A stretch of 61,736 nucleotides of DNA, counting the filler, from Sandaracinaceae bacterium (lineage in GTDB: Bacteria; Myxococcota_A; Polyangia; Polyangiales; JADJQN01): assembly GCA_947483975.1 (NCBI GenBank). It is 3 parts of 3 records of this genome, joined end to end, with 100 filler letters (N's around TTAATTAATTAA, not from the genome) between each part and the next. Parts side by side here need not be neighbours in the genome. Positions count along the whole stretch, not along the records: positions 1 to 20,923 come from CANKOL010000050.1; 2 more parts are not named here. One strand, 5' to 3'. Under the pieces are notes generated by a model, which saw only the letters and a list, made by a program, of their open reading frames with translations, did no database searches and was not told the origin of the DNA. Positions 2,826 to 41,724 of this stretch are shown here, piece after piece. A program made the position numbers and the translations under genes. Each line of letters begins with the position of its first letter. The stretch's first letter is position 1.

Positions 2826-3767
2826 ATGAACCGCACTTCCCTTCGCTCTTCATCGTTCGCGCTCGCTTGTCTCGCGCTCGCCGGGCTCTCGCAGGCCTGC
2901 GCCGCGGGCGAACCGTCGGTCCCGATGCGCTACGACGCGCACGTGCCGCCCTCGCCGGACGGCGGCTCGCGCGACCTCGGCGGCTCGGACCTCGGCGCGA
3001 CCGATCTCGGCAGCGCAGACCTCGGCGCGACCGATCTCGGCAGCGCAGACCTCGGCGCGAACGACCTCGGCAGCGCAGACCTCGGCAGCGCAGACCTCGG
3101 CAGCGCAGACCTCGGCAGCGCAGACCTCGGCCCGACGAGCGATGCGGGCCCGCTCGCCGGCTATCGGCACACGATCACCATCGACGGCGTCAACGACTTC
3201 GACGCGGCGCCCGAGCGCTTCGACACGACGACCGCAGGATATTCGCTCTACGTCAGCTGGGACGCGGACGCGCTCTACCTCGGCGCGAACGGTCCGGACA
3301 TCGCGTCGGGCGGCGCGACGAAGTGGCTGCTCTTCTACCTCGACACCAACGGTGCGGGCGCCGGGTCGAGCGTCGGCGTGACGTACAACACGCAGACTCC
3401 GGCGCTCCCGGCGGGCTTTTCGGCCGACTTCGTGTTCCGCTGGCGGGCGGACAACACCTTCCAGAGCCTGCAGCGCTGGGACGTCACGACGTCGACGTGG
3501 GTCGAGACGACCGTCGCGCCGACGACGTTCCAAGCGGGCACGTTCGTCGAGACGCGCCTCCCGCTGATCGAGCTCGGCGCACCGACGACCATCGGCATCG
3601 CCGCGCTCATGCTCAACGAAGCCGCGGGCGTCGAGTTCTCCTACTCGGGAATGCCGAGCGGGACGTTCGCGGACGGCTACCACGCGACCATTCCGATGAC
3701 GCGCTGGCTGTCGGCGAACCGAAGCCTCACCGCCAATCCGAACGACGCGAGTCGCCTGCGGCCCTGA
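2826..3767 (+). CDS. Secreted lipoprotein with DLGxx repeat linker and C-terminal DOMON/CBM9-like beta-sandwich
   Basis: ATG 5 nt after the MoxR stop. Signal ends in LSQAC, followed by 11 DLG pentapeptide units and then ITIDGVNDF...LYVSWDADALYLG, reminiscent of DOMON-like sugar-binding domains. Confidence 0.7.
   Translation: MNRTSLRSSSFALACLALAGLSQACAAGEPSVPMRYDAHVPPSPDGGSRDLGGSDLGATDLGSADLGATDLGSADLGANDLGSADLGSADLGSADLGSADLGPTSDAGPLAGYRHTITIDGVNDFDAAPERFDTTTAGYSLYVSWDADALYLGANGPDIASGGATKWLLFYLDTNGAGAGSSVGVTYNTQTPALPAGFSADFVFRWRADNTFQSLQRWDVTTSTWVETTVAPTTFQAGTFVETRLPLIELGAPTTIGIAALMLNEAAGVEFSYSGMPSGTFADGYHATIPMTRWLSANRSLTANPNDASRLRP
2973..3131 (+). repeat. 15-bp coding tandem repeat (DLGSA/DLGAT), about 10.6 copies
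   Basis: gacctcggcagcgca-type units read directly. Confidence 0.92.
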
Positions 3768-3775
3768 GGGCGCGC

Positions 3776-3805
3776 TTGTCCCGCGCGAGCGGCGCGTGGT
3801 AGCTT
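3776..3805 (+). promoter_or_regulatory. Putative sigma70 promoter for the radical SAM operon
   Basis: TTGTCC (3776-3781), 18-nt spacer, extended -10 TGG-TAGCTT (3797-3805). AGGAGG RBS at 3851-3856 precedes GTG 3861. Confidence 0.5.
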
Positions 3806-3860
3806 TGCCCTGTTTTTCAAGGCGAACGCTGCCGCGCTGGACGCGGCTCGAGGAGGCCTC

Positions 3861-4637
3861 GTGGACCGACGCTCGGATTCGCTGCTGCCAGACCTGAGGT
3901 CGCGCGTGTTGCGGTTCGGGGTCGAGTGGGGAGAGGCGACGGGAAGGCCGCTCGCGACCGCGCGCGATGGGCTCGACTTCCTGACGGCGATGAAGTCGCG
4001 CGACGACTTCTGGGACGCCCTCGCCGCGGACGGTCCGGGCGGCACACCGCTGCTCGACACGGCGGCTTTGCGCGAGGCGCTACCTGCCGACGCGCCTCCG
4101 CAGGAGACCGCGTCGGAGGATGTGCTGCGCTCCCTCGGCCTCGCGGAGGGCGAGGTCATCGCGGTGCTGACGGGCCTCGACGAACCACCCGGACTCGATG
4201 ACGCGATCCGCGCAGCGTTCGCCGAGAGCACCCCGCAGAAGGTCGCGCGCGCCCTCGAGCGCGTCCTCGACACCGACCGGAATGTCCTCGCGACCGAGCA
4301 ATACGTGCGCCGCCTGCCAGAGTCCGCGGGGGTCGGGCGCTCGCTCGGCGTGCTGATGGGCACCGCCGTCCTGCTCGTCGGCACCACGCTCGGCGCCTGC
4401 GTCGCGCGCTGCGGGGCCCCGCAGAGCGCGCCGACGCCGCGCACCTCGCAGCAGACGCCGACGACGCCGGAGACCGCTCCGAACCCGGGAGCAGGAGCAC
4501 AGTCGACGCCTGAGCCGACGCCCCCCGAGCCGGCTCCTCCAGAGCCCACGCCGCCCCCACGTCCCTATCCGCCGCCGGGCCCCGCGCCCGCCTACAAGGG
4601 CGTGAGCCCGCGTCGCCGAGGAGCGCTCCACCCATGA
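3861..4637 (+). CDS. Putative radical SAM substrate/precursor protein 1 (YKG-motif lipoprotein-like)
   Basis: Strong RBS. Paralogous to 4634..5428 over the N-terminal ~175 aa. Hydrophobic segment ends TLGAC, then a Pro/Thr-rich linker and C-terminal PAPAYKGVSPRRR. Confidence 0.75.
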   Translation: MDRRSDSLLPDLRSRVLRFGVEWGEATGRPLATARDGLDFLTAMKSRDDFWDALAADGPGGTPLLDTAALREALPADAPPQETASEDVLRSLGLAEGEVIAVLTGLDEPPGLDDAIRAAFAESTPQKVARALERVLDTDRNVLATEQYVRRLPESAGVGRSLGVLMGTAVLLVGTTLGACVARCGAPQSAPTPRTSQQTPTTPETAPNPGAGAQSTPEPTPPEPAPPEPTPPPRPYPPPGPAPAYKGVSPRRRGALHP

Positions 4638-5428
4638 ACACGTTCTCCGCTGTTCAGCTCGAACGCCTGAAAGTCCACGTTCTCCCGTTCGGTGCAGAGT
4701 GGACGAGCACGACGCGGCGACCGCTCGCCACCGTGCGCGACGGGCTCGACTTCCTCGCGTCGATGAGGGCGCGCGGAGACTTCTGGGCGGGCCTCGCGCC
4801 GACGAGCCCGGAGGACACCTATCCGCTCGATCTCGCGGCCCTGCGCGAGCTACTGCCGAGCGCGCCGCTCACCTCGGACGTCGCTGCAGAGGATTTCCTG
4901 CGCGCGCTGGGGCTCTCCGACAGCGAACTCAGCGAGCTCGTCACGGGCCTCGACGAGCCCAATTTCTTCGACCTCGCGATCCAAGCGGCCTTCGCGGAGA
5001 CGCGCCCGCAGAGCGTCGCGCGGGCGCTCGAGCGCATCCTGCAGACGAACGCGGACGTGCTCGCGACGCAGTGCTACGTCGGCCGCGTCGCGACCTCGCG
5101 CGGCCTGGTCCGCACCGTCGGCGCGATGATGGGAGTCGCCCTCTTGCTCGTCGGCACCGCGTGCCCTCCGCAGAGCAGCCAGCCGACGCCGCAGCCCACG
5201 CCAGGCCAGGGCTCGGCGACCTCGGGTGCATCCTCGACGCCGACGCCGACCCCACAGCCGCCGCCCGACCCCGCGTCCGGCGCGACGACGCTCACTCCCG
5301 TCGCGCCCACGCCGCCGACGCCCGCGCCTGCGAACCCGCCGGCGCAGCGACCGCACCCGCCCCCGAGTCCCGCCCCCCGCTACAAGGGCGTGAGCCCGCG
5401 ACGGCGGACCGCCGCGACGCCCACCTGA
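4634..5428 (+). CDS. Putative radical SAM substrate/precursor protein 2 (YKG-motif lipoprotein-like)
   Basis: ATGA overlap with the previous gene. Shares RPLATxRDGLDFL, DFW, TGLDEP and VARALER blocks. VGTAC, Pro-rich linker, C-terminal PAPRYKGVSPRRR. Confidence 0.75.
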   Translation: MNTFSAVQLERLKVHVLPFGAEWTSTTRRPLATVRDGLDFLASMRARGDFWAGLAPTSPEDTYPLDLAALRELLPSAPLTSDVAAEDFLRALGLSDSELSELVTGLDEPNFFDLAIQAAFAETRPQSVARALERILQTNADVLATQCYVGRVATSRGLVRTVGAMMGVALLLVGTACPPQSSQPTPQPTPGQGSATSGASSTPTPTPQPPPDPASGATTLTPVAPTPPTPAPANPPAQRPHPPPSPAPRYKGVSPRRRTAATPT

Positions 5429-5439
5429 GCGCGTCAGCG

Positions 5440-6627
5440 ATGGAACGACCTCCGCGCATGACGGCGTGCTCTCCAGGCCAGACGTCGTTCACCCGCCCGC
5501 TCGCACTGCGACACGTCGACCGCGCGCCGGAGCACTTCGTCTGGGAGCTGACGAACGCCTGCAACTTGAACTGCGTGCATTGCGAGAGCGAGTCTGGGCC
5601 TGCGCGCGAGTCGGAACTCTCGACGGAGGAGGCGCTCGCGCTCTGCGATGACCTCCTCGCGCTCGGCTGCAAGGTCGTCAATCTCTCGGGCGGTGAGCCA
5701 TTCCTGCGCCCGGATTGGCTGCAGATCTGCGAGCGCTTGGTCGCCCTCGGGCTCGAACCGATACTCGTGTCGAACCTCACCATCGCCAACGCGGAGCACT
5801 TCGACGCGCTCGCGCGCCTCGGCGTCGAGTGGATCGCGACGTCCGTCGATGGCCCGCCGGAGGTCCACGACCGAATTCGCCGCACCCGAGGTGAGCCGTT
5901 TTCGCCCTTCGCCCGCACGCACGCGACGATCCTCGACCTCAAGGCGCGCGGCTTCAGCGTCGCGGTCATCACGCACATCAACCTGTGGAACCTGCCGCAC
6001 CTCGACGAACTCGCGGATATCCTCGAGCGTCTCGGCGTCGATCTCTGGCAGTTGCAGATCGGGCAACCTTCGGGGCGACTCCGCGAGATCGCCGAGAGCT
6101 ACCTCATCTATCCCGGGCAAATGGAGGACATCTACGCCTTCATCCGGCGCACCCAGCAGACTCGCAAGCTGACACTCGACGTCTCGGACGATATCGGCTT
6201 CTTCGGCCCGGACGAGCTCGCCATACGCACTTTGCACGGTGAGGCGCGGTTCTTCGCCGGATGTCAGGCGGGCTTCCGCGCGCTCGCGATCACGAGCGAC
6301 GGAATGGTTCGCGGCTGCCCTTCCCTCGAGATCGACGTGGGCAGTGTGCGCGAGACCCCGATCGCCGATATCTGGGCCGACGAGAAGCGCTTCTGGTTCA
6401 ACCACTGGGACCCCACCAAGGTCGAGGGGAACTGCCGTCGCTGCTCGTTTCAGCGCCTCTGCCGGTGCGGCTGCAAGAGCCTCGCGCTGTCCACCACGGG
6501 CTCCCTTCACCGCAACATCTACTGTATCAATCAGCTCCAGAACCTCGACGGCGACCCAGACACGCGTGAGGTCGAGGGCGTGCCACTCTCCGCGCGAAAG
6601 CGCTCTTTGCCCCAAGTGACGGAGTAG
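5440..6627 (+). CDS. Radical SAM/SPASM peptide-modifying enzyme 1 (PlpX/splicease-like clade)
   Basis: VWELTNACNLNCVHC, SGGEP, SVDG, LWQLQI, DDIGFFGPDE. SPASM cysteines GCQAG..GCPS..CRRC..LCRCGC..YC. Start is ATG 5440, alternatively 5458. Confidence 0.88.
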   Translation: MERPPRMTACSPGQTSFTRPLALRHVDRAPEHFVWELTNACNLNCVHCESESGPARESELSTEEALALCDDLLALGCKVVNLSGGEPFLRPDWLQICERLVALGLEPILVSNLTIANAEHFDALARLGVEWIATSVDGPPEVHDRIRRTRGEPFSPFARTHATILDLKARGFSVAVITHINLWNLPHLDELADILERLGVDLWQLQIGQPSGRLREIAESYLIYPGQMEDIYAFIRRTQQTRKLTLDVSDDIGFFGPDELAIRTLHGEARFFAGCQAGFRALAITSDGMVRGCPSLEIDVGSVRETPIADIWADEKRFWFNHWDPTKVEGNCRRCSFQRLCRCGCKSLALSTTGSLHRNIYCINQLQNLDGDPDTREVEGVPLSARKRSLPQVTE

Positions 6628-6635
6628 CGACACCC

Positions 6636-7766
6636 ATGCATCCGCCCCCAACTCCCGAGTTCAGCCCAGAGTTCTGCGTGTGGGAGACGACCCTCGCCTG
6701 CAATCTATCCTGCCGACACTGCGGCTCCTCCGCCGGCAAGGCCCGCGCGAACGAGCTCGACACGGAGGAGGCGCTCGCGCTGATCGACGCGCTCGCGAAC
6801 CTCGGGACGCGCGAGATCACGTTCAGCGGAGGCGAATTCATCGTGCGCCCAGACTGGCGGCTCTTGCTCGCGCGAGCAAAGTCGCGCGGCGTCGCGAGCC
6901 TCCTCGTCTCGAACGGGCTCGCGCTCACGCGCGAGGTCGCCGACGAGCTCGCGCGGCAGGATGTCGGCAGCGTCTCGCTGAGCGTCGACGGGAGTCCCCC
7001 CGCACATGACCGGCTACGCCCCCTCCACAAGCTGCACGCGCTCGAGTTCTCCGGCCCGTGTGGCGCCGAAGGGCCTTCGAGCCACGAGCAGTTGAGGCAC
7101 GCGGCCGAGAACTTGCGCGCTGCGGGCGTGACGGTCTCCGCGATCACGCAGGTATCGAAGAACAACCTCGCCGAGCTCCCCGCGATCGAAGAGTTCCTCG
7201 TCGCCTCCGGCATCGACGGTTGGCAGATCCAGATGACGAACGCGATGGGGCGCGGCGCCCGCGGCGCCGGCGAACACGCCATTCAGATCCTCGAGCCAGC
7301 GGATCTGCCGACGCTCTACGCCCATGTGCGAAGGGTGCAGCGCGAGGGTCGAGTCCGCTGCCTCGCCGCGGATTGTCTGGGCTATTTTGCGCCCGACGAG
7401 CCTCTCCTGCGCAGCGTCGAGCGGCCGGGCGACAACTTCTGGCAGGGCTGCCAAGCGGGGATGCGCGTACTCGGCATCACGAGCGATGGTGGCATCAAGG
7501 GCTGTCTCTCGATGACGGACACCTTCCTCGAGGGCAACCTCCGCGAGCGCCCGCTCCACGAGATCTGGAATGACCGGAGCGCGTTCGCCTACAACCGTCG
7601 CTTCGACGAGGCGACCCTGACGGGCGGGTGCAGCGGTTGCGCGTTCGGCAAGCTCTGCCGCGCGGGCTGCCGCAGCTTCGCGGCGACGGCGCAAGACGGC
7701 GACATCTCGCGCTACGACCACTGCATTCGCCTGCAGGACGCGGCGACGACGTCCTCGCCGCAGTGA
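6636..7766 (+). CDS. Radical SAM/SPASM peptide-modifying enzyme 2 (PlpX/splicease-like clade)
   Basis: VWETTLACNLSCRHCGSSAG, SGGE, WQIQMTNAMGR, GYFAPDEPLLR, FWQGCQAG..LGITSDGGIKGCLS..GNLRERPL..CSGC..LCRAGC..HC. Confidence 0.9.
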   Translation: MHPPPTPEFSPEFCVWETTLACNLSCRHCGSSAGKARANELDTEEALALIDALANLGTREITFSGGEFIVRPDWRLLLARAKSRGVASLLVSNGLALTREVADELARQDVGSVSLSVDGSPPAHDRLRPLHKLHALEFSGPCGAEGPSSHEQLRHAAENLRAAGVTVSAITQVSKNNLAELPAIEEFLVASGIDGWQIQMTNAMGRGARGAGEHAIQILEPADLPTLYAHVRRVQREGRVRCLAADCLGYFAPDEPLLRSVERPGDNFWQGCQAGMRVLGITSDGGIKGCLSMTDTFLEGNLRERPLHEIWNDRSAFAYNRRFDEATLTGGCSGCAFGKLCRAGCRSFAATAQDGDISRYDHCIRLQDAATTSSPQ

Positions 7767-9019
7767 GGGTCCTCTTCCTCGTCGCCGACTCGCTCCGCGC
7801 GGACGCGCTCGGCTGCTACGGCTCCGACCTCCGCACGCCGACGGTCGATCAACTCGCCTCGGGCGGCGCGCGCTTCGAGACGGTCATCTCCTCGGCGCCG
7901 TGGACGCTGCCGTCCCTCGGCGCGATGCTGACGGGAGTCTGGTCCCATCGACTCGGGCTGATGAAGTGGGAGCAGCCCTGGCCGCGCGGAGTCCCGACGC
8001 TCTTCGACGCGTTTCGGCGCAAGGGAATCGAGACGGCGTCCTTCGTCTTCGAGCCAGACCATCTCTTCAGCGCGTGTCCGGAGGCCAGCGTCGCGGGCTC
8101 TTCGCAGGACACCGACGCGATGCTGGCGTGGTTTCGCGCGCGCCGACACGGCGACTACTTCGCCTTCGTCCACTACTGGTGGACTCATGTGCCTTATGTC
8201 CGGCGGAGGCTCGCGCTCGCGACCTGGAACCAGGTGTGCCGGCAGCTTCTCGCGCTTCTGTCGGCCCCCGATCCAGCGACGCGCCTCGCCAATCGCCTGC
8301 AAATTCAGGGGCTCTACGCGGTCGCCGTGCAGGAGTTCAGCGAGGTCTGGCTGCCTCCGCTCCTCGAAGCTGCGCGCGCCGACACCGTCGTGCTCGTCTC
8401 GGATCATGGGGAGTCTTGGGGAGAGCGCCTGTCGGCGACTGACACTCTCGACGATGTGTTCGACTTGCACGGCAATCACCTCCACGAGGAGGTGCTCCGA
8501 GTCCCGTGGATCCTGCATTCGCCGGGGCTCGTGCCCGCCGTGACCGTCAGCGGCTTGGCCCGGTCCGTCGACGTGCTGCCGACGCTGCTCGAGGTGCTCG
8601 CCCTCGACCATCCCTCGCTGCGCGCGCCCTCAGGGGCGTCTCACGCGCGCTCCGGACGCTCGCTCGCCGCCGCGCTCGGCACGGGGCAACTCGCTGGCGA
8701 ACACGTCGCGTTCTCGTCGCGCAACCACGACTTCCTCGACGCGCCGGCGTTGCCGAGCGAACCCAGCAGCGTGTACGCCGAGTTCGCGTGTCGGAGCCTC
8801 TACCGCAAGGTCCTCATGGACGTGCGCGGCGCGCACGCGCGAGAGTACGATCTGCGCGCAGATCCTGCCGAAACGAGCTCCATCCGGCTGCCGGATGACA
8901 GCCCCTCGGCGCTCGCTGCGGCGCTACGCAGCGAGCTTCCCCACGCGGTCGTCTCCCCGCACCACGCCGAGGACTCTGCCCGGATGGGACAGCGCCTGAA
9001 GGACCTCGGCTACCTCTGA
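7763..9019 (+). CDS. Sulfatase-like hydrolase/transferase (alkaline phosphatase superfamily, Thr at nucleophile position)
   Basis: GTGA overlap with rSAM2. LVADSLRAD, APWTLPS..MLTG, HYWWTHVPY, SDHGE, HG..LHEEVLRVP, C-terminal RLKDLGY. No signal peptide. Confidence 0.85.
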   Translation: MRVLFLVADSLRADALGCYGSDLRTPTVDQLASGGARFETVISSAPWTLPSLGAMLTGVWSHRLGLMKWEQPWPRGVPTLFDAFRRKGIETASFVFEPDHLFSACPEASVAGSSQDTDAMLAWFRARRHGDYFAFVHYWWTHVPYVRRRLALATWNQVCRQLLALLSAPDPATRLANRLQIQGLYAVAVQEFSEVWLPPLLEAARADTVVLVSDHGESWGERLSATDTLDDVFDLHGNHLHEEVLRVPWILHSPGLVPAVTVSGLARSVDVLPTLLEVLALDHPSLRAPSGASHARSGRSLAAALGTGQLAGEHVAFSSRNHDFLDAPALPSEPSSVYAEFACRSLYRKVLMDVRGAHAREYDLRADPAETSSIRLPDDSPSALAAALRSELPHAVVSPHHAEDSARMGQRLKDLGYL

Positions 9020-9145
9020 CGCGGCGCAGAGACACGCGCGTTCAACGGTGATGTCGGCGCGCTCGTTGACTTCAATTCAGCCCTCCGGCAGCCTCGCCAA
9101 CGGTTTCGGAAGTTCTCGCGTCCCGCGCCCATCACGAGCCACTCC

Positions 9146-10237
9146 ATGCCCGCCTCCGTCGACCTGCCGTCCCGCACCACGGTCATCGAACGCTTCAAAG
9201 GCCAGGGCGGACGCATCGCCGCGGTCCTGCCGATTCACTATCCGCGTGCGCTCTTTCGCGCGTTCGGGATGCTGCCGATCGAGGTCTGGGGCCCGCCCGG
9301 CGTCGACAAATCCACGGGCGACGCGCACCTGCAGGCGTACGCGTGCAGCACGGTGCGCGCGGGGCTCTCGTTCATCTTGAGCGGCGCCGGCGAGGTCGCC
9401 GACGCGATCCTCGTGCCGCACACCTGCGACTCACTGCAGGCGCTCGCGAGCGTGCTGCTCGACTTCACGAAGCCGCACCAGATGGTCCTCACGCTCTATG
9501 TTCCGAAGGCCGAGCGCGCGTCGGACCTCGAGTTTCTCGGCAAGGAGCTGCGGCGCGTGTTCGGACGGCTCGTCGAGCTGACGGGCCAGCGGCCGACCGA
9601 CGCGGAGCTGCACGCCGCGATGGACCGCGAGCAGCAGGCCGACGAGGTGCTCGCGCGACTCCTGAGCGAGCGCGGCAAGCTCGGCGTCGGCAACCGCGAG
9701 TTCTACGGGGTCGTGCGCAGTCGGGAGTACTTGCCGGCCGAGGAGTTCGCCTCGCTCGCGCGCGCCGCCCTCGACAAGTGGGCGGGAGCGCCGTTGCCGA
9801 AGCGCACGCCGATCCTCGCGACGGGAATCATGCCTGAGCCGATGGACGTGCTCGACGCCCTCGACGAGGCGGGCTTGTCCATCGTCGCGGACGACTTCGC
9901 GGGGAGCGGGCGGCGCCTCTACAAGGCGTCGACGGCGCGCGACCCGTTCGACCGAATGGCCAAGACGCTGCTCTCGGGCTCACCCGATCCGACGCGCGGC
10001 TGCGGCATACAGCCGCGCATCGATCACCTCGTCGACCTCGCGAAGCGCACGGGGGCGAGGGGGGCGCTCTTCTACGAGATCAAGTTCTGCGAGCCAGAGG
10101 CGTTCTACGTGCCGCTCGTCACGCGCGGGCTCCAAGCCGCGGGCGTTCCCTGCCTCGCGGTCGAGGTGGACATCACGGACCCGATGCCGGATCAGCTCGT
10201 CACCCGGATCGAAGCCTTCGCAGAGAGCCTCTCATGA
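9146..10237 (+). CDS. 2-hydroxyacyl-CoA dehydratase subunit (HgdB/FldC/BcrC family)
   Basis: HLQAYACS, PHTCDSLQ, IVADD, IKFCEPEAF, TRIEAFAE. Confidence 0.87.
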   Translation: MPASVDLPSRTTVIERFKGQGGRIAAVLPIHYPRALFRAFGMLPIEVWGPPGVDKSTGDAHLQAYACSTVRAGLSFILSGAGEVADAILVPHTCDSLQALASVLLDFTKPHQMVLTLYVPKAERASDLEFLGKELRRVFGRLVELTGQRPTDAELHAAMDREQQADEVLARLLSERGKLGVGNREFYGVVRSREYLPAEEFASLARAALDKWAGAPLPKRTPILATGIMPEPMDVLDALDEAGLSIVADDFAGSGRRLYKASTARDPFDRMAKTLLSGSPDPTRGCGIQPRIDHLVDLAKRTGARGALFYEIKFCEPEAFYVPLVTRGLQAAGVPCLAVEVDITDPMPDQLVTRIEAFAESLS

Positions 10238-11559
10238 GCATCCCCGGTCAGCTCGCCTATCAGCTCAACGTCAACGTCCTCGGCAAAGCCGCGCTCCGCG
10301 TTCAGCGCTGGCAGCTCGAGCGCAAGCTCTCGAAGCCCGGCACCTGGAAGCACGAGACGCTCAACGCGCCCATCGACACCGCCCCTTGGCTCAAGGAGCT
10401 GATCACCAAGCATTACCTGACTGGGCGCTACGCCAACGGCGCGCGCAAGGTCGCGTGGGTCACCTCGGGCGCGCCCGTCGAGTTCCTCAAGGCGCTCGAC
10501 TACTTCCTCATCTATCCCGAGAACCACGGGGCGGTGTGTGGGATTCGCAAGGTCGGCGAGGAGATGTGCACGCACGCCGAGGACTTCGGCTATTCGCGGG
10601 ATATCTGCTCGTACGCGCGGTGCGATATCGGCTCGGTGTTGTCGGGCAAGACGCCTGTCGGGCGCCTCCCGAAGCCGGACCTACTCCTCTGCTGCAACAA
10701 CATCTGTCAGACGGTCCTCTACTGGTATCAGGTGCTCGCGCATCACTTCGGCTGTCCGCTGATCGTCATCGACACTCCGTTCATCTACGACGAGGCGCGC
10801 GAGCACGACATCGCGTCGGTGAAGCGCCAGATCGAGGACGCGTTCCCCATCGCCGAGCGCGTCGCGGAGAGGACGATCGAGCCGAAGCGCCTCGAGGACG
10901 TGATGCTGCGCAGCCGCGACGCGGTGGACCTCTGGCTCAAGGTGCTGCAGACGGGGCGCAATCATCCCTCCCCGATCACCGCGTTCGACGAATTCATCCA
11001 CATGGCGCCCATCGTCGAGATGCGCGGAGAGTCCGCGACGGTCGACTACTACAGCGCGATGCTGAGCGCGCTCGAGCAGCGGGCGAAGGACGGCGTCGGC
11101 GCGCTGAAGCACGAGAAGAAGCGCATTCTCTGGGACAATTTGCCCATCTGGTACCGCATCCGGCCGCTCGGCGAGAAGCTCGCGGAGCATGGCGTCGCGA
11201 TGGTCGCGTCCACGTACACCAACGCTTGGGGCGAGCTCGCCGAGCTGATCAACGCGGACCATCCGATGGACTCGATGGCCAAGTGCTACCTCCATCCGAT
11301 CCTCAATCGGGGCACCGGGCACAAGCTCCAGACGATGCAGAAGATGCTCACCGAGTACGAGGCCGACGGGGTCATCTTGCACTCGGATCGCTCGTGCAAG
11401 CCGTACTCGATTGGGCAGATCGACCAGCGCAACGCGGTGTCGGACAAGCTCGGCAAACCCGCGCTGCTGCTCGAGGCCGATCACACCGACGGGCGCGCGT
11501 ATTCGGTCGAGCAGGCGGACACGCGCATCTCGGCGTTCCTCGAATTGCTCGGAGTCTGA
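10234..11559 (+). CDS. 2-hydroxyacyl-CoA dehydratase subunit (HgdA/FldB/BcrB family)
   Basis: ATGA overlap. YPENHGA, GYSRDICSYAR, PKPDLLLCCNNIC, DGVILHSDRSCK, EADHTD..TRISAFLE. Confidence 0.88.
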   Translation: MSIPGQLAYQLNVNVLGKAALRVQRWQLERKLSKPGTWKHETLNAPIDTAPWLKELITKHYLTGRYANGARKVAWVTSGAPVEFLKALDYFLIYPENHGAVCGIRKVGEEMCTHAEDFGYSRDICSYARCDIGSVLSGKTPVGRLPKPDLLLCCNNICQTVLYWYQVLAHHFGCPLIVIDTPFIYDEAREHDIASVKRQIEDAFPIAERVAERTIEPKRLEDVMLRSRDAVDLWLKVLQTGRNHPSPITAFDEFIHMAPIVEMRGESATVDYYSAMLSALEQRAKDGVGALKHEKKRILWDNLPIWYRIRPLGEKLAEHGVAMVASTYTNAWGELAELINADHPMDSMAKCYLHPILNRGTGHKLQTMQKMLTEYEADGVILHSDRSCKPYSIGQIDQRNAVSDKLGKPALLLEADHTDGRAYSVEQADTRISAFLELLGV

Positions 11560-12332
11560 TGATGGCGAACGTCGTCGCGCTGGGCTTCGACATCGGCTCT
11601 TCGACGGCCAAGCTCGTCGGCGTCACCGCGGACGGCAAGCTCGCGTTTCACCGCATCGAGCCGACGGAGCCGCGGATCGAGGATCAGGCGACGCGTATGC
11701 TCGCAGAGGCGCGGGCGGCGCTCGGCGGCGGCGCGCTCCCCGTCGTCGCGACGGGCTACGGGCGCAAGCTGATCCCAGGCGCCGACCGCGCGGTCACGGA
11801 GATCACCTGCCACGCGCGCGGCGTGTGGGAGGCGATGGGCACGCCGGGCACGCTCGTCGACGTCGGCGGGCAGGACAGCAAGGTCATCGTGGTCGGCGCC
11901 GAGGGTCGCGTCGCGAACTTCGCGATGAACGACAAGTGCGCCGCGGGCACCGGGCGCTTCCTCGAGGTGACGGCGGCGCGCCTGCGCATCCCGATCGACG
12001 AGATCGGCGCGGTGTCGCTCAGCACGAAGAAGAGCGTGCCCATCTCCAGCACCTGCACGGTCTTCGCGGAGTCAGAGATCATCTCGTTGCTCGCGCACGG
12101 CGAGCACGTCGAGAACATCCTGCACGGGCTGCATCGCTCGCTCGTCTCACGCCTCGTCGCGATGGTCCGCGGAGTGCAGCCGCGGGCGCCGTATATGCTG
12201 TCCGGCGGGGTGGCGCGAAACGGCGCGCTGCGGGCGTTCCTCGCGGAGAGCCTCGGCAGCGAGGTGCTCGTGCCCGCCGAGCCGCAATTGATGGGCGCGT
12301 ACGGCGCGGCGCTGCTGGTTCGCCACGGCTAG
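11559..12332 (+). CDS. ATP-dependent activase of 2-hydroxyacyl-CoA dehydratase (HgdC/BadFG family, ASKHA [4Fe-4S])
   Basis: TGATG coupling. DIGSSTAK, ATGYGR, EITCHARG, DVGGQDSK, MNDKCAAGTGRFLE, SSTCTVFAESE, GGVARN. Confidence 0.92.
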   Translation: MMANVVALGFDIGSSTAKLVGVTADGKLAFHRIEPTEPRIEDQATRMLAEARAALGGGALPVVATGYGRKLIPGADRAVTEITCHARGVWEAMGTPGTLVDVGGQDSKVIVVGAEGRVANFAMNDKCAAGTGRFLEVTAARLRIPIDEIGAVSLSTKKSVPISSTCTVFAESEIISLLAHGEHVENILHGLHRSLVSRLVAMVRGVQPRAPYMLSGGVARNGALRAFLAESLGSEVLVPAEPQLMGAYGAALLVRHG

Positions 12333-14449
12333 CGGATCAGGTCTTTGACCTTGGCGCGTAGCTGCGCGGCCGTGTACGGCTTCGGCAAGAAGCCGCTGAC
12401 CGCGCGCCCGGAGAATCGGTCCTTGAGCTCCAGCTCGGAGTAGCCGCTCGAGACGATCACGCGCACTTGCGGATCGAGGACTCGCAGCTCACGCAGGGCC
12501 GAGTCGCCGTCGAGCACAGGCATCGTGAGATCGAGCAGCACGAGCGCGATGCGCCTGGCGTGCATCGCGTAGAGATCGACCGCCTGCCGCCCGTCGCACG
12601 CGAGGAGCACCTCGTACCCAGCGTTTTCGAGGATCTTGCCCACGAACCTGCGTAGCGAAGGCTCGTCGTCGACGACGAGCACGACGCGCGTGTCCCCGTG
12701 CTCGATGGCCGGCGGTACGGAGGACACCGAAATGCGCTCGCGCGACGCGCGCGCGTCCCGCGGTTGCTCGACGGGCAACAGCAGGCGCACGCGGGTGCCC
12801 TGCCCCGGTGCGCTCGTGAAGCGGAGCGAGCCTCCGTGTGCGCGGGCGATGCCGAGCGACTCCGGGATACCGAGCCCGCGCCCCACGAACTTCGTCGAGA
12901 AGAACGGATCGAAGATTCGCGCGAGCGTCGCGGCGTCCATCCCTGGGCCATCGTCCTCGAGGTCGATGTAGAAGTACGTGCCGGGCTCGAGGGAGTCACC
13001 CGCGACGAACGGCTCGAGTTCCGCGCGGCCACACTCGACGACGCCCCAAGCGACGCGAACCTCGCCCGACTCGGCTGCGACGGCCTCTGCGGCGTTGGTC
13101 ATGAGGTTGCCGATCAGGCGCCGAAGCTGGTCGGGATCCGCGGCGATGGTCGAAGGCTCCGCGGCTGCGGACAACGCCGGGCTCGACACGAGCGTCACGC
13201 CCGTCGGGAAGGTCGTGGCGATGGAGGGAAGCGCGACCTGCATCAGCGTCGGGAGTGACACGCTCGAAGGGGCAAACAGGGACTTGCCGGAGACCGCGAG
13301 CATCTGCTGAGTCAGGCGCGCCGCGCGTCGTGCGGCGAGCACGATTTGTTCGAGATCCGCCTGCACGGGCGAGTTCGACTCGGTCGCCTCGCAGACGGTC
13401 TCGGCGTTGCCGAGGATGGTCGTCAGGAGGTTGTTGAAGTCGTGCGCGATGCCGCCGGCGAACATCCCGGCGCTCTCGAGGCGCTGCATTCGGTGCTCAC
13501 GTTCGATCGAGCGGAGGCGCTCCTGCTCGGCGCGCCGTCGCTGCGTGACGTCCTCGAAGGTGGAGAACGAGCCGAACGGCACCGCCTCGCCGGGGCGAAA
13601 CATCGGGACCGCGCTGGTCCGCAGCCAGACCACGTCGTCTCGGTCGGCGGTGTGCAACCCAAACACGACCTCGGGCACCTCCACTCCGGTGCTCTGCGCG
13701 ACGACGACGGGGAACTCGTCCGTCGGCAGCGGCGAGCCGTCCTCGCGCACGGCCCGCCAGCGCGGATCGAGCAGGCCCCGGTCCGCTAGCTCGTCGGGAG
13801 CCAGGCCGAGGATCTTCAGCGCGGCCGGGTTCGCGGAGGTGATCGTCCCGTCGCTGAGCGAGTAGACGACGCCTTGCGTCATGCGGTCGAAGAGCCCCCG
13901 AAAGCGGGCTTCGCTGGCCACGAGCGCCGCCTCGGCGCGCTTGCGGTCGACCATGTCCATCGTGAGCGAGAGGAGCTCCTCGAGGGCCTCGACGTCGTCT
14001 GAGTCGTAGTCCGTGGGCTTGTTCCCCACGCCGATGATCGCGGTGACGAGGTCGTCGCGCAGCATCGGCACGATCAGCTCGCGCGTGATCGTGGCGTGCC
14101 CCTCGGGCATCCCCCTGCGGTGCATCAGCGCCGCGTAGTCGTTGTGGATGACCGGCGCGCGCGCGTGAAACGCCTCCACCCAGACACCTGCGCGGTTGAT
14201 CGCGTAGTGCTGGTGCTTGCCCTCGGCGGTGCACATATGCCGGAGCGTGTTGGTGGACCAAGCCTGCAGCGTCAGGTTCTGCTGGTCCGGGTCGACGAAG
14301 TGGAAGAAGCCGATCAGGCTGCCGCTGAGCCGCTCGGCGGAGTCGAGCGTCTCCTGCAAGAGCTCGTCGAGCGTCCCGTGGAGCGCGACGCGAGAGAGCC
14401 TCACGCGCGCCTCGAGCAGCAAGCGCTGCTTCTGCCCGTCAGCCGGCAT
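12329..14449 (-). CDS. Cytoplasmic hybrid sensor histidine kinase (GAF-PAS-HisKA-HATPase-REC)
   Basis: GAF (PVIHNDY, GVGNK), PAS, H-box GGIAHDFNNLL, N/G boxes (DDGPGMD, FDPFFSTK, GRGLG), receiver (VVDDE, LLDLTMP, KPY). Start placed at ATG 14449. Confidence 0.92.
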   Translation of the reverse strand: MPADGQKQRLLLEARVRLSRVALHGTLDELLQETLDSAERLSGSLIGFFHFVDPDQQNLTLQAWSTNTLRHMCTAEGKHQHYAINRAGVWVEAFHARAPVIHNDYAALMHRRGMPEGHATITRELIVPMLRDDLVTAIIGVGNKPTDYDSDDVEALEELLSLTMDMVDRKRAEAALVASEARFRGLFDRMTQGVVYSLSDGTITSANPAALKILGLAPDELADRGLLDPRWRAVREDGSPLPTDEFPVVVAQSTGVEVPEVVFGLHTADRDDVVWLRTSAVPMFRPGEAVPFGSFSTFEDVTQRRRAEQERLRSIEREHRMQRLESAGMFAGGIAHDFNNLLTTILGNAETVCEATESNSPVQADLEQIVLAARRAARLTQQMLAVSGKSLFAPSSVSLPTLMQVALPSIATTFPTGVTLVSSPALSAAAEPSTIAADPDQLRRLIGNLMTNAAEAVAAESGEVRVAWGVVECGRAELEPFVAGDSLEPGTYFYIDLEDDGPGMDAATLARIFDPFFSTKFVGRGLGIPESLGIARAHGGSLRFTSAPGQGTRVRLLLPVEQPRDARASRERISVSSVPPAIEHGDTRVVLVVDDEPSLRRFVGKILENAGYEVLLACDGRQAVDLYAMHARRIALVLLDLTMPVLDGDSALRELRVLDPQVRVIVSSGYSELELKDRFSGRAVSGFLPKPYTAAQLRAKVKDLIR

Positions 14450-20923: not shown

Positions 20924-21023
20924 NNNNNNNNNNNNNNNNNNNNNNNNNNNNNNNNNNNNNNNNNNNNTTAATTAATTAANNNNNNNNNNNNNNNNNNNNN
21001 NNNNNNNNNNNNNNNNNNNNNNN
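20924..21023. other. Artificial contig spacer
   Basis: 44 N + TTAATTAATTAA (stops in all six frames) + 44 N. Confidence 0.97.
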
Positions 21024-41624: not shown

Positions 41625-41724
41625 NNNNNNNNNNNNNNNNNNNNNNNNNNNNNNNNNNNNNNNNNNNNTTAATTAATTAANNNNNNNNNNNNNNNNNNNN
41701 NNNNNNNNNNNNNNNNNNNNNNNN
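41625..41724. other. Artificial contig spacer
   Basis: 44 N + TTAATTAATTAA + 44 N. Confidence 0.97.

Follow-up and report, generated by a model that had tools for sequence, protein, structure and literature searches.

Radical S-adenosylmethionine (SAM) enzymes carrying a SPASM domain are a main source of new peptide chemistry, and the spliceases among them, which are used for protein engineering, are to our knowledge the only known route to ribosomal β-amino-acid ketoamides. Spliceases are reported to act at an X-Y-G motif (PMC11414181, PMC11626197, PMC9811515). Here we describe an operon at 3861-9019 of a 61,736-nt stretch of DNA (hereafter the window) from a metagenome-assembled genome (MAG) of a Sandaracinaceae bacterium (GCA_947483975.1), which consists of five tightly packed + strand genes for two paralogous proteins (preA and preB), two radical SAM/SPASM enzymes and a sulfatase-fold enzyme. 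Sequence comparisons suggest that it probably encodes a protein-maturation system acting on a Tyr-centred C-terminal core, with preA and preB as the substrates of the radical SAM enzymes, and we infer the site of modification to lie in their YKG tail.

The locus resembles the spliceotide systems (PlpX, PcpX, RhaX, RcsX; TIGR04103) in having a radical SAM/SPASM gene directly after a precursor gene, a core whose Tyr and Gly are invariant and whose residue ahead of the Tyr varies, N-terminal regions of the leader type, and TIGR04103 as the best-scoring named model for both of its enzymes. In contrast with these systems, it has Y-[K/R]-G instead of X-Y-G, always two paralogous radical SAM enzymes, no Y protein or gene for a recognition element (RRE) of ribosomally synthesised peptides that are modified post-translationally (RiPPs), and precursors of 180 to 400 aa with an internal lipobox and, usually, a sulfatase-fold partner. 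The GDL systems of TIGR03913 are also close, being the second-best named model, with true members falling in the sister clade of the enzymes described here; their small neighbouring peptides carry x-Y-G as spliceotides do, but are ~60 aa long with the YG near the N-terminus, accompany a single radical SAM enzyme and, in those inspected, have no lipobox. In the mycofactocin (MftA/MftC) and pyrroloquinoline quinone (PQQ; PqqA/PqqE) pathways, too, a radical SAM/SPASM enzyme acts on a near-C-terminal Tyr of a ribosomal precursor, whereas loci of the window's type lack RRE, peptidase or other pathway genes, and their precursors are far larger and predicted to be membrane-directed.

Two paralogous proteins share an invariant C-terminal motif

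The operon is preceded by a Shine-Dalgarno-like GAGGAGG (3850..3856, +), read from the sequence 4 nt ahead of the GTG start of preA. The open reading frames (ORFs) of preA (3861..4637, +; 258 aa; tail AYKGVSPRRRGALHP) and preB (4634..5428, +; 264 aa; tail RYKGVSPRRRTAATPT) share an ATGA overlap, and their products are ~51% identical. After an 11-nt gap comes the first radical SAM/SPASM enzyme (5440..6627, +; 395 aa), after a further 8-nt gap the second (6636..7766, +; 376 aa), and finally, with a GTGA overlap, the S1-sulfatase-fold enzyme (7763..9019, +; 418 aa). The packing, overlaps, gaps and ribosome-binding site described in a first-pass annotation of this DNA all read back from the sequence as claimed, and the two radical SAM/SPASM enzymes and the sulfatase-like enzyme that it recognised have Pfam matches above the cut-offs.

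Both precursor candidates close in YKGVSPRRR, their tails reading ...PRPYPPPGPAPAYKGVSPRRRGALHP and ...QRPHPPPSPAPRYKGVSPRRRTAATPT. The Tyr codons lie at 4593 and 5381, as that annotation had stated, and open the motif Y245-K-G-V-S-P250 in preA (4593..4610, +), the proposed modification site, and Y250-K-G-V-S-P255 in preB (5381..5398, +). Only 18 protein clusters among 5.8 billion were returned by a preB query, none of them named or carrying a Pfam domain; in the resulting narrow-family alignment (19 sequences) YKGVSP is invariant (19/19) and the Pro-rich linker ahead of it freely variable.

preA consists of a helical N-terminal domain, a hydrophobic stretch, the Pro-rich linker and the tail, and its 19-aa hydropathy maximum (2.03) is centred at residue 173. 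By a PROSITE-type lipobox pattern, the hydrophobic stretch ends in a lipobox-like VLLVGTTLGAC in preA (Cys180; 4332..4400, +) and GVALLLVGTAC in preB (Cys177; 5096..5164, +), and across the 19 sequences it ends in a nearly invariant Cys ahead of the linker. An AlphaFold2 model of preA has an all-helical N-terminal domain (predicted local distance difference test score, pLDDT, >90), a helix at 158-184 and a disordered tail. Neither preA nor preB has a Pfam or NCBIfam match; the preA N-terminal domain retrieved nothing in Foldseek at E <= 0.001 and a best Z of 6.1, within the helical background, in a wide structural search, and the ESM Atlas gave no usable match for preB.

The narrow family is rare. 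Among 401 genomes sampled from the phylum only G000, the genome of the window, and G337 match it strongly, a same-genus genome of 94% completeness has no match, and a scan of genome contigs with the precursor alignment as query found nothing. Six metagenome loci (L015 to L019 among them) repeat the gene order of the window with one or two precursors, the pair of an A-type and a B-type precursor recurring in L015, L016, L017 and L018. The precursors of G337, L023 and L029 end ...SLTACYKGVTPE(A/L), where the motif follows immediately on the Cys that closes the hydrophobic stretch, with no linker in between, and the compact L023 and L029 forms indicate that the Pro-rich linker can be dispensed with. 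A 584-aa open frame in G337, considered as a precursor–radical SAM fusion, was rejected as two genes in one frame with a stop between them.

The YKG motif recurs beside tandem radical SAM genes

From a scan of 185,579 species genomes with the radical SAM alignment we took the 80 best loci, of which 13 carry a tandem radical SAM pair like that of the window. In every one of these (13/13), the frame ending just upstream of the first radical SAM gene closes in Y[KR]G[VI]: YKG in 12 (e.g., IYKGVSFPAR, VYKGVAFPE, LYKGISFPRG, RYKGVTF) and YRG in one (PYRGVTLPKR). Searching with preA and preB by tblastn detects the precursor in only two of the 13 (L023 and L029). When all six frames of 86 loci were scanned for a Y[KR]G[VI] no more than 30 residues ahead of a stop, the motif was found only at precursor positions, plus one spurious 41-aa frame.

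A profile of this broad precursor family adds 51 clusters, all labelled 'hypothetical', with VYKGVSFP as the commonest core. C-terminal Y[KR]G is present in 34/34 and 51/51 precursors, and none of these 85 sequences is named by Pfam, NCBIfam or its source. Eight of the 401 phylum-sample genomes match the profile, and the whole family, of which every member carries the annotation 'hypothetical', amounts to 18 + 51 protein clusters among 5.8 billion and to ~10 of the 401 genomes. Its invariance, together with its recurrence in precursors that tblastn cannot detect, argues that the motif is more than chance, and the loci compared indicate that it tracks the radical SAM pair across a divergence that has erased almost everything else. 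The central claim of the first-pass annotation, an unannotated radical SAM system centred on a C-terminal YKG motif, is thus borne out in 13 of 13 tandem loci with no named family, and the homologues do have YKG-motif neighbours.

Precursor genes number one to three per locus (two each in L033 and L038), their products range from 180 to 400 aa, and that of L030 carries two copies of the core. These features bear on an alternative in which the YKG proteins are membrane-anchored partners or scaffolds that tether or regulate the radical SAM enzymes, the tail serving for binding and the substrate lying elsewhere. Such a role would suit proteins that are large for RiPP precursors and have a well-folded N-terminal domain, and the enzymes of spliceotide systems are reported to be activated by a leader helix or by a small Y protein (PMC11414181). 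We nevertheless regard it as improbable: varying copy number and a duplicated core are typical of substrates, all but the extreme C-terminal motif and the lipobox diverges freely, and the loci hold no other conserved candidate substrate gene.

One expanded locus, L109 (G385:C63:15000-26000), has three tandem precursors (one ending PLYKGAAFRP), three radical SAM genes, two of the 'first' and one of the 'second' type, and a sulfatase-fold gene.

The radical SAM enzymes form a sister clade of XYG-linked families

Both enzymes exceed the Pfam cut-offs for Radical_SAM (PF04055; 78.5 bits for the first and 72.5 for the second, cut-off 29.5) and SPASM (PF13186; 38.9 and 27.4 bits, cut-off 21.5). CX3CX2C is encoded at 5560-5583 in the first and at 6699-6722 in the second, and these Cys together with the seven of the SPASM domain (ten) are kept in 17/17 enzymes of the first clade and 18/18 of the second. 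Since all Fe-S cysteines are kept in both of these old paralogues, both enzymes are probably active, and the duplication predates the spread of the system.

For both enzymes the NCBIfam ranking is headed by TIGR04103 (189.1 bits for the first and 230 for the second, vs a cut-off of 725) and TIGR03913 (179.5 and 202.7 vs 591.75), followed by heme, mycofactocin and PQQ families (TIGR03962, mycofactocin: 122.5 and 110.8 vs 265; TIGR02109, PqqE: 76.3 and 74 vs 381.35); none of these cut-offs is reached. Among the best 75 of 150 listed representatives of the second enzyme, none reaches the cut-off of TIGR04103 or TIGR03913. The 95 radical SAM enzymes scanned from the fetched loci comprise 25 true TIGR03913 members and four TIGR04103-like proteins (582-611 bits) among others; 0 reach 725, and none of the YKG-linked enzymes of other loci reaches even E 1e-110 for TIGR04103.

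A maximum-likelihood tree (70 rows, quick search, LG+G4, midpoint root, no outgroup) separates a 'first' clade of 17 rows (Shimodaira-Hasegawa-like approximate likelihood ratio test, SH-aLRT, 99) from a 'second' clade of 18 rows (SH-aLRT 94), the two being joined at 96. The joint YKG clade is sister to a clade (SH-aLRT 96) with TIGR03913 members, TIGR04103-like proteins and other single radical SAM enzymes; within it, splicease relatives are represented by NCBIfam-scored proteins and not by experimentally characterised spliceases. Membership of the two enzymes in the PlpX family is not supported, with scores of 189 and 230 bits against 725 and a position beside, not inside, that clade. TIGR04103 and TIGR03913 outscore the cofactor models for both. 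The PlpX-clade motifs named for them in the first-pass annotation are present only approximately (DIGFFGPDE and GCQAGFRALAITSDGMVRGCPS in the first enzyme, CLGYFAPDE and GCQAGMRVLGITSDGGIKGCLS in the second), but they are common to the whole wider clade and hence not specific.

Two Thermoplasmatales MAG loci (L024, L046) have two to three tandem radical SAM/SPASM genes inside the 'YKG_second' clade, and no frame with C-terminal Y[KR]G[VI] is found in these loci. Beside TIGR03913 genes of the sister clade, small 'GDL' peptides carry x-Y-G (...KPYGVAI, ...LYGGAM, ...PMYGVAI), a position consistent with splicing near the N-terminus. In L034, L039, L055, L073, L080 and L098 several tandem GDL peptides lie upstream of TIGR03913 genes, each starting with the x-Y-G motif followed by ..SGDL.KMK... 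The precursors beside TIGR04103-like enzymes of 582-611 bits (L084:4751-5062, L100:935-1534) combine a short leader and a lipobox (..LMGC / ..TMGC) with the classical x-Y-G core VYGGPPIP.

Possible chemistry at the core tyrosine

The residue before the core Tyr varies (A, R, V, I, L, S, P or C), and an invariant Tyr and Gly behind a variable residue echo spliceotide logic; the Lys or Arg between Tyr and Gly, the two enzymes and the separate clade set the system outside the spliceotide family. Judged by the nearest relatives, the likeliest chemistry would be a splicease-like radical reaction at the Tyr, to which the second enzyme would add a further radical step. Splicing-like chemistry, argued by analogy, is a tentative proposal.

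The same system acting on the same substrate might instead produce a crosslink or some other Tyr-centred modification, a prospect that we consider possible but unlikely: a C-C or C-O bond joining the Tyr ring and the side chain of a neighbour, β-hydroxylation or oxidation, epimerisation, or a quinone-like cofactor made on the peptide, as in PQQ or mycofactocin. Many radical SAM/SPASM enzymes make crosslinks, and the presence of two such enzymes suggests two radical steps; both also have lower-scoring matches to the mycofactocin, PqqE, WgkB and sactipeptide maturase models, and many broad-family cores have a Cys ~5 residues ahead of the Tyr (e.g., ...LCMAPAYKGVSFPD) that could give a thioether. 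However, the best named models are XYG-linked families and not crosslinkers or cofactor enzymes, and neither the window's own family nor L021, L027, L030 or L033 has the nearby Cys. A ring formed by crosslinking adjacent residues would moreover be strained. Of the new splice variant and the Tyr/Lys crosslink put forward in the first-pass annotation, the latter is weakened by natural YRG cores in four sequences (L061, P0200, P0202, P0203) and a YLG core in one (L105, ending PLYLGVRFD): a link through the Lys ε-amine is hard to reconcile with these, and a Tyr to Lys-Nε crosslink is disfavoured on that ground.

A precursor scaffold with an internal lipobox

Broad-family precursors begin with a conserved ~110-aa domain at a well-defined ATG and continue with a hydrophobic stretch that ends in an invariant Cys, a Gly/Ser/Asp-rich spacer, a second small domain with the signature LF..TP.EIA..LE.M, and the core. 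In a profile-profile comparison, window-family residues 82-138 align with this second domain (probability 49%, E 1.7e-4); they precede the hydrophobic stretch, whereas the broad-family domain follows it. The match gives modest support to one module lying on opposite sides of the hydrophobic stretch in the two precursor families.

The PROSITE PS51257-type lipobox pattern, {DERK}(6)-[LIVMFWSTAG](2)-[LIVMFYSTAGCQ]-[AGS]-C, comes with the rule that the Cys falls in roughly the first 35 residues, behind an n-region that is short and positively charged. Here the pattern stands at the end of the hydropathy maximum in 33/34, 48/51 and 15/15 precursors, the three misses among the 51 being fragments of 130-201 aa, and 81 of the 85 precursors have an internal hydrophobic stretch with a lipobox Cys; control frames from the same genome contain the pattern at 0.295 per 1000 residues. 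Because the sequences are related, these counts show conservation and not independent recurrence. As in lipoprotein precursors handled by Lgt and LspA, a hydrophobic h-region is followed by [LVI..][AGS..][AGS]-C and by Gly/Ser/Asp- or Pro-rich tethers; unlike in them, the signal lies 89 to 202 residues inside, behind a folded domain, and not within the first ~35. An internal translation start before the lipobox was considered and rejected, since neither preA nor preB has an internal start codon with a Shine-Dalgarno-like ribosome-binding site ahead of the hydrophobic stretch.

The hydrophobic stretch may thus be read as an internal signal-anchor through which the tail would be exported, after which lipidation of the Cys and cleavage in front of it by Lgt and LspA would remove the leader and leave a membrane-anchored modified tail. 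To export followed by Lgt/LspA processing we would give somewhat less than an even chance, and a plain uncleaved membrane anchor is the obvious alternative.

Nine further relatives on this scaffold end in ...WDDDDH or ...DDDDH instead of the YKG core. In L101-L104 and L106-L108 the N-terminal domain and lipobox are shared and the tails acidic (...TPWDDDDH, ...CDDWDDH, ...DDDDTGH); such precursors adjoin 'first'-clade radical SAM enzymes in L103, L106 and L108, with a sulfatase-fold gene near in L103 and L108. The acidic tails look like a second core type on the same scaffold. In some of these loci the adjoining radical SAM enzymes form subgroups of their own inside the 'first' clade (one long-branch join was flagged). 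The enzymes thus diversify together with the C-terminal core, which is what a substrate role of the core would lead one to expect.

In the L030 locus (Coatesbacteria, low G+C, clean ORFs; 5998-9883, -), Exo_endo_phos, LolA_like and MacB/FtsX permease genes lie convergent to the YKG operon, a single case of lipoprotein-sorting-type neighbours that is possibly coincidental.

A sulfatase-fold enzyme without the formylglycine signature

The product of the fifth gene matches PF00884 at 81.6 bits (cut-off 25) and has no signal peptide. Its AlphaFold2 model (pLDDT 83.7; predicted template modelling score, pTM, 0.89) is an S1 fold by its best Foldseek matches, which are S1 sulfatases (9fo1, E 1.3e-20, template modelling scores 0.63/0.58), and is also close to choline sulfatases and phosphonate monoester hydrolases. 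When it is aligned to solved sulfatases, Thr48 (7904-7906) falls at the formylglycine position, in the motif PWTLPSL. PWT[LV]P[SA][LMV] is found in 13/13 orthologues, from which the Cys/Ser and the signature Arg of C/S-x-P-x-R are absent, and D9, T48 and D214-H215 (D9 and D214-H215 being metal ligands) are invariant in 12/12 aligned orthologues. An S1 sulfatase fold with Thr in place of formylglycine is an unexplored enzyme type.

The gene lies directly after the tandem radical SAM pair in eleven of the 13 loci (39-51% identity) and follows the second radical SAM gene in 14 of 17 loci with enough downstream sequence; L027, L030 and L061 have no sulfatase-fold gene within about 5 kb downstream of the precursor and both radical SAM genes. 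This distribution marks the enzyme as accessory. Five loci add a second cytoplasmic gene of the alkaline-phosphatase superfamily (PF01663), a PAPS-type sulfotransferase domain (PAPS, 3'-phosphoadenosine-5'-phosphosulfate) is fused in frame to the sulfatase-fold enzyme in L062 (1015-3483), and a Sulfotransfer_3 gene stands beside the sulfatase-fold gene in L017 (7298-8002, -). The sulfotransferase fusion and neighbours and the PF01663 genes point to sulfo or phospho tailoring and argue against sulfatase maturation as the purpose of the radical SAM enzymes. The window's genome encodes, at G000:C3:1793-2353 on another contig with no YKG gene nearby, a homologue of the L017 sulfotransferase with 71% identity.

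Anaerobic sulfatase-maturating enzymes (anSMEs) are radical SAM/SPASM enzymes encoded beside sulfatases, and the window shares with such pairs the adjacency of a radical SAM/SPASM gene and an S1-sulfatase-fold gene. With a true S1 fold encoded directly after the second radical SAM gene in 14/17 loci, one or both radical SAM enzymes could in principle mature their sulfatase-fold neighbour in the same manner, the YKG proteins being unrelated neighbours. Unlike anSME targets, though, the window enzyme has Thr for the oxidised Cys/Ser and has lost the signature Arg, which is Leu, Met or Val in 13/13 orthologues. The sulfatase-fold gene is moreover dispensable in 3/17 loci, since L027, L030 and L061 keep the precursor and both radical SAM genes; no anSME model is among the 25 best NCBIfam matches of either enzyme, the best matches lying elsewhere, and the YKG motif tracks the radical SAM pair in 13/13 loci. 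A maturase of this kind is very hard to credit.

Proposed maturation pathway

In the pathway that we favour, the helical N-terminal domain would be the recognition ('leader') part of the precursors, and both radical SAM/SPASM enzymes would act in the cytoplasm on the Tyr-centred core. The cytoplasmic sulfatase-fold enzyme, using its Thr as nucleophile, would serve for optional tailoring, adding or removing a sulfo or phospho group before the tail is exported.

Several observations weigh against this account or its parts. X-Y-G is absent, with a Lys between Tyr and Gly and YG nowhere in preA or preB, and both enzymes are far below the TIGR04103 and TIGR03913 cut-offs, in a sister clade and not as members. 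Known spliceotide systems have one radical SAM enzyme, not two, and none is known to have a sulfatase-fold partner. Five Thermoplasmatales radical SAM enzymes without YKG neighbours nest in the 'second' clade, and a quick LG+G4 tree without an outgroup limits the placement of the enzymes altogether. On the precursor side, the family member P0018 is without the lipobox-like Cys, the lipobox Cys at residue 89 to 202 breaks the positional rule of lipoprotein signal peptides, and homology of the two precursor families is supported modestly, by context, shared motifs and the profile match.

A more far-reaching version of the pathway, to which we attach a low probability, would see the products as ribosomally made, radical-SAM-modified lipoproteins or lipopeptides for which the general lipoprotein machinery acts as 'leader peptidase'. 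The folded leader would keep the precursor cytoplasmic while the two radical SAM enzymes carry out a new Tyr-centred backbone reaction at Y-K-G, a splice variant tolerating a residue between Tyr and Gly and furnishing a ketoamide warhead. Export of the tail by the internal signal-anchor would follow, with Lgt and LspA attaching lipid to the Cys and cleaving ahead of it. For the compact variants (L023, L029, ...SLTAC-YKGVTPE-L/A) this would mean a lipidated peptide of nine residues. Leader and lipobox combined with other cores (...WDDDDH) would then make a general delivery platform for radical-SAM-modified surface peptides, comparable to Nif11 or nitrile hydratase leader peptide (NHLP) leaders.

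The system is sharply defined, with an invariant core of six residues, a pair of enzymes and a further enzyme for optional tailoring. A splicing variant, if that is what it proves to be, would widen the sequence rules of splicease chemistry, and any other reaction would be a chemistry new for Tyr. The internal lipobox, being conserved, suggests that radical maturation in the cytoplasm is linked to the pathway of lipoprotein export. No account of the YKG motif or the precursor family was found in the literature searched, the paper classifying splicease types lying outside that search, and no link between a lipobox and radical SAM/SPASM enzymes was found there. Among the family models, source names and papers searched, none covers the motif or the precursors. 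The classification, reportedly by Scott et al. in Chem in 2022, may already list the clade or lipobox-type precursors.

Genomic context of the operon

The window joins three contigs through runs of N at 20924-21023 and 41625-41724, positions 1-20923 being contig C50 of the MAG (524 contigs, 81% completeness), so that DNA beyond 20923 is not contiguous with the operon. G+C in the region is 68-73%. The promoter proposed in the first-pass annotation was not confirmed: a simple scan of 3600-9300 for sigma-70-like promoters and intrinsic terminators gave 0 sites, which leaves it a reading by eye. Rfam at gathering thresholds gave 0 matches in 1-20923. No RNA run is listed among the sequencing runs that contain operon DNA; near-identical DNA to 3776-9019 (at least half of the sampled words) occurs in lake-water metagenome runs of two studies (P3 and P4), besides runs of two others (P1 and P2) from which the assembly may derive.

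Upstream of the operon lie an AAA ATPase read as MoxR-like (1981-2820, +) and a protein with DLGSADLG repeats that looks secreted or like a lipoprotein (about 2909-3767, +). Two genes of the HGD-D family (2-hydroxyacyl-CoA dehydratase-like; 9146-10237 and 10234-11559, +) stand directly 3' of the operon, followed by a BcrAD/BadFG activator ATPase (11565-12332, +) and a hybrid PAS histidine kinase/receiver (12329-13999, -). The 2-hydroxyacyl-CoA dehydratase genes, the MoxR ATPase and the histidine kinases were considered as parts of the system and rejected, as they are not conserved in related loci; the BcrAD/BadFG ATPase gene likewise lacks a conserved place beside the system elsewhere. Kinases resembling the downstream PAS histidine kinase also occur near L023 and L026, a feature that looks generic for the phylum.

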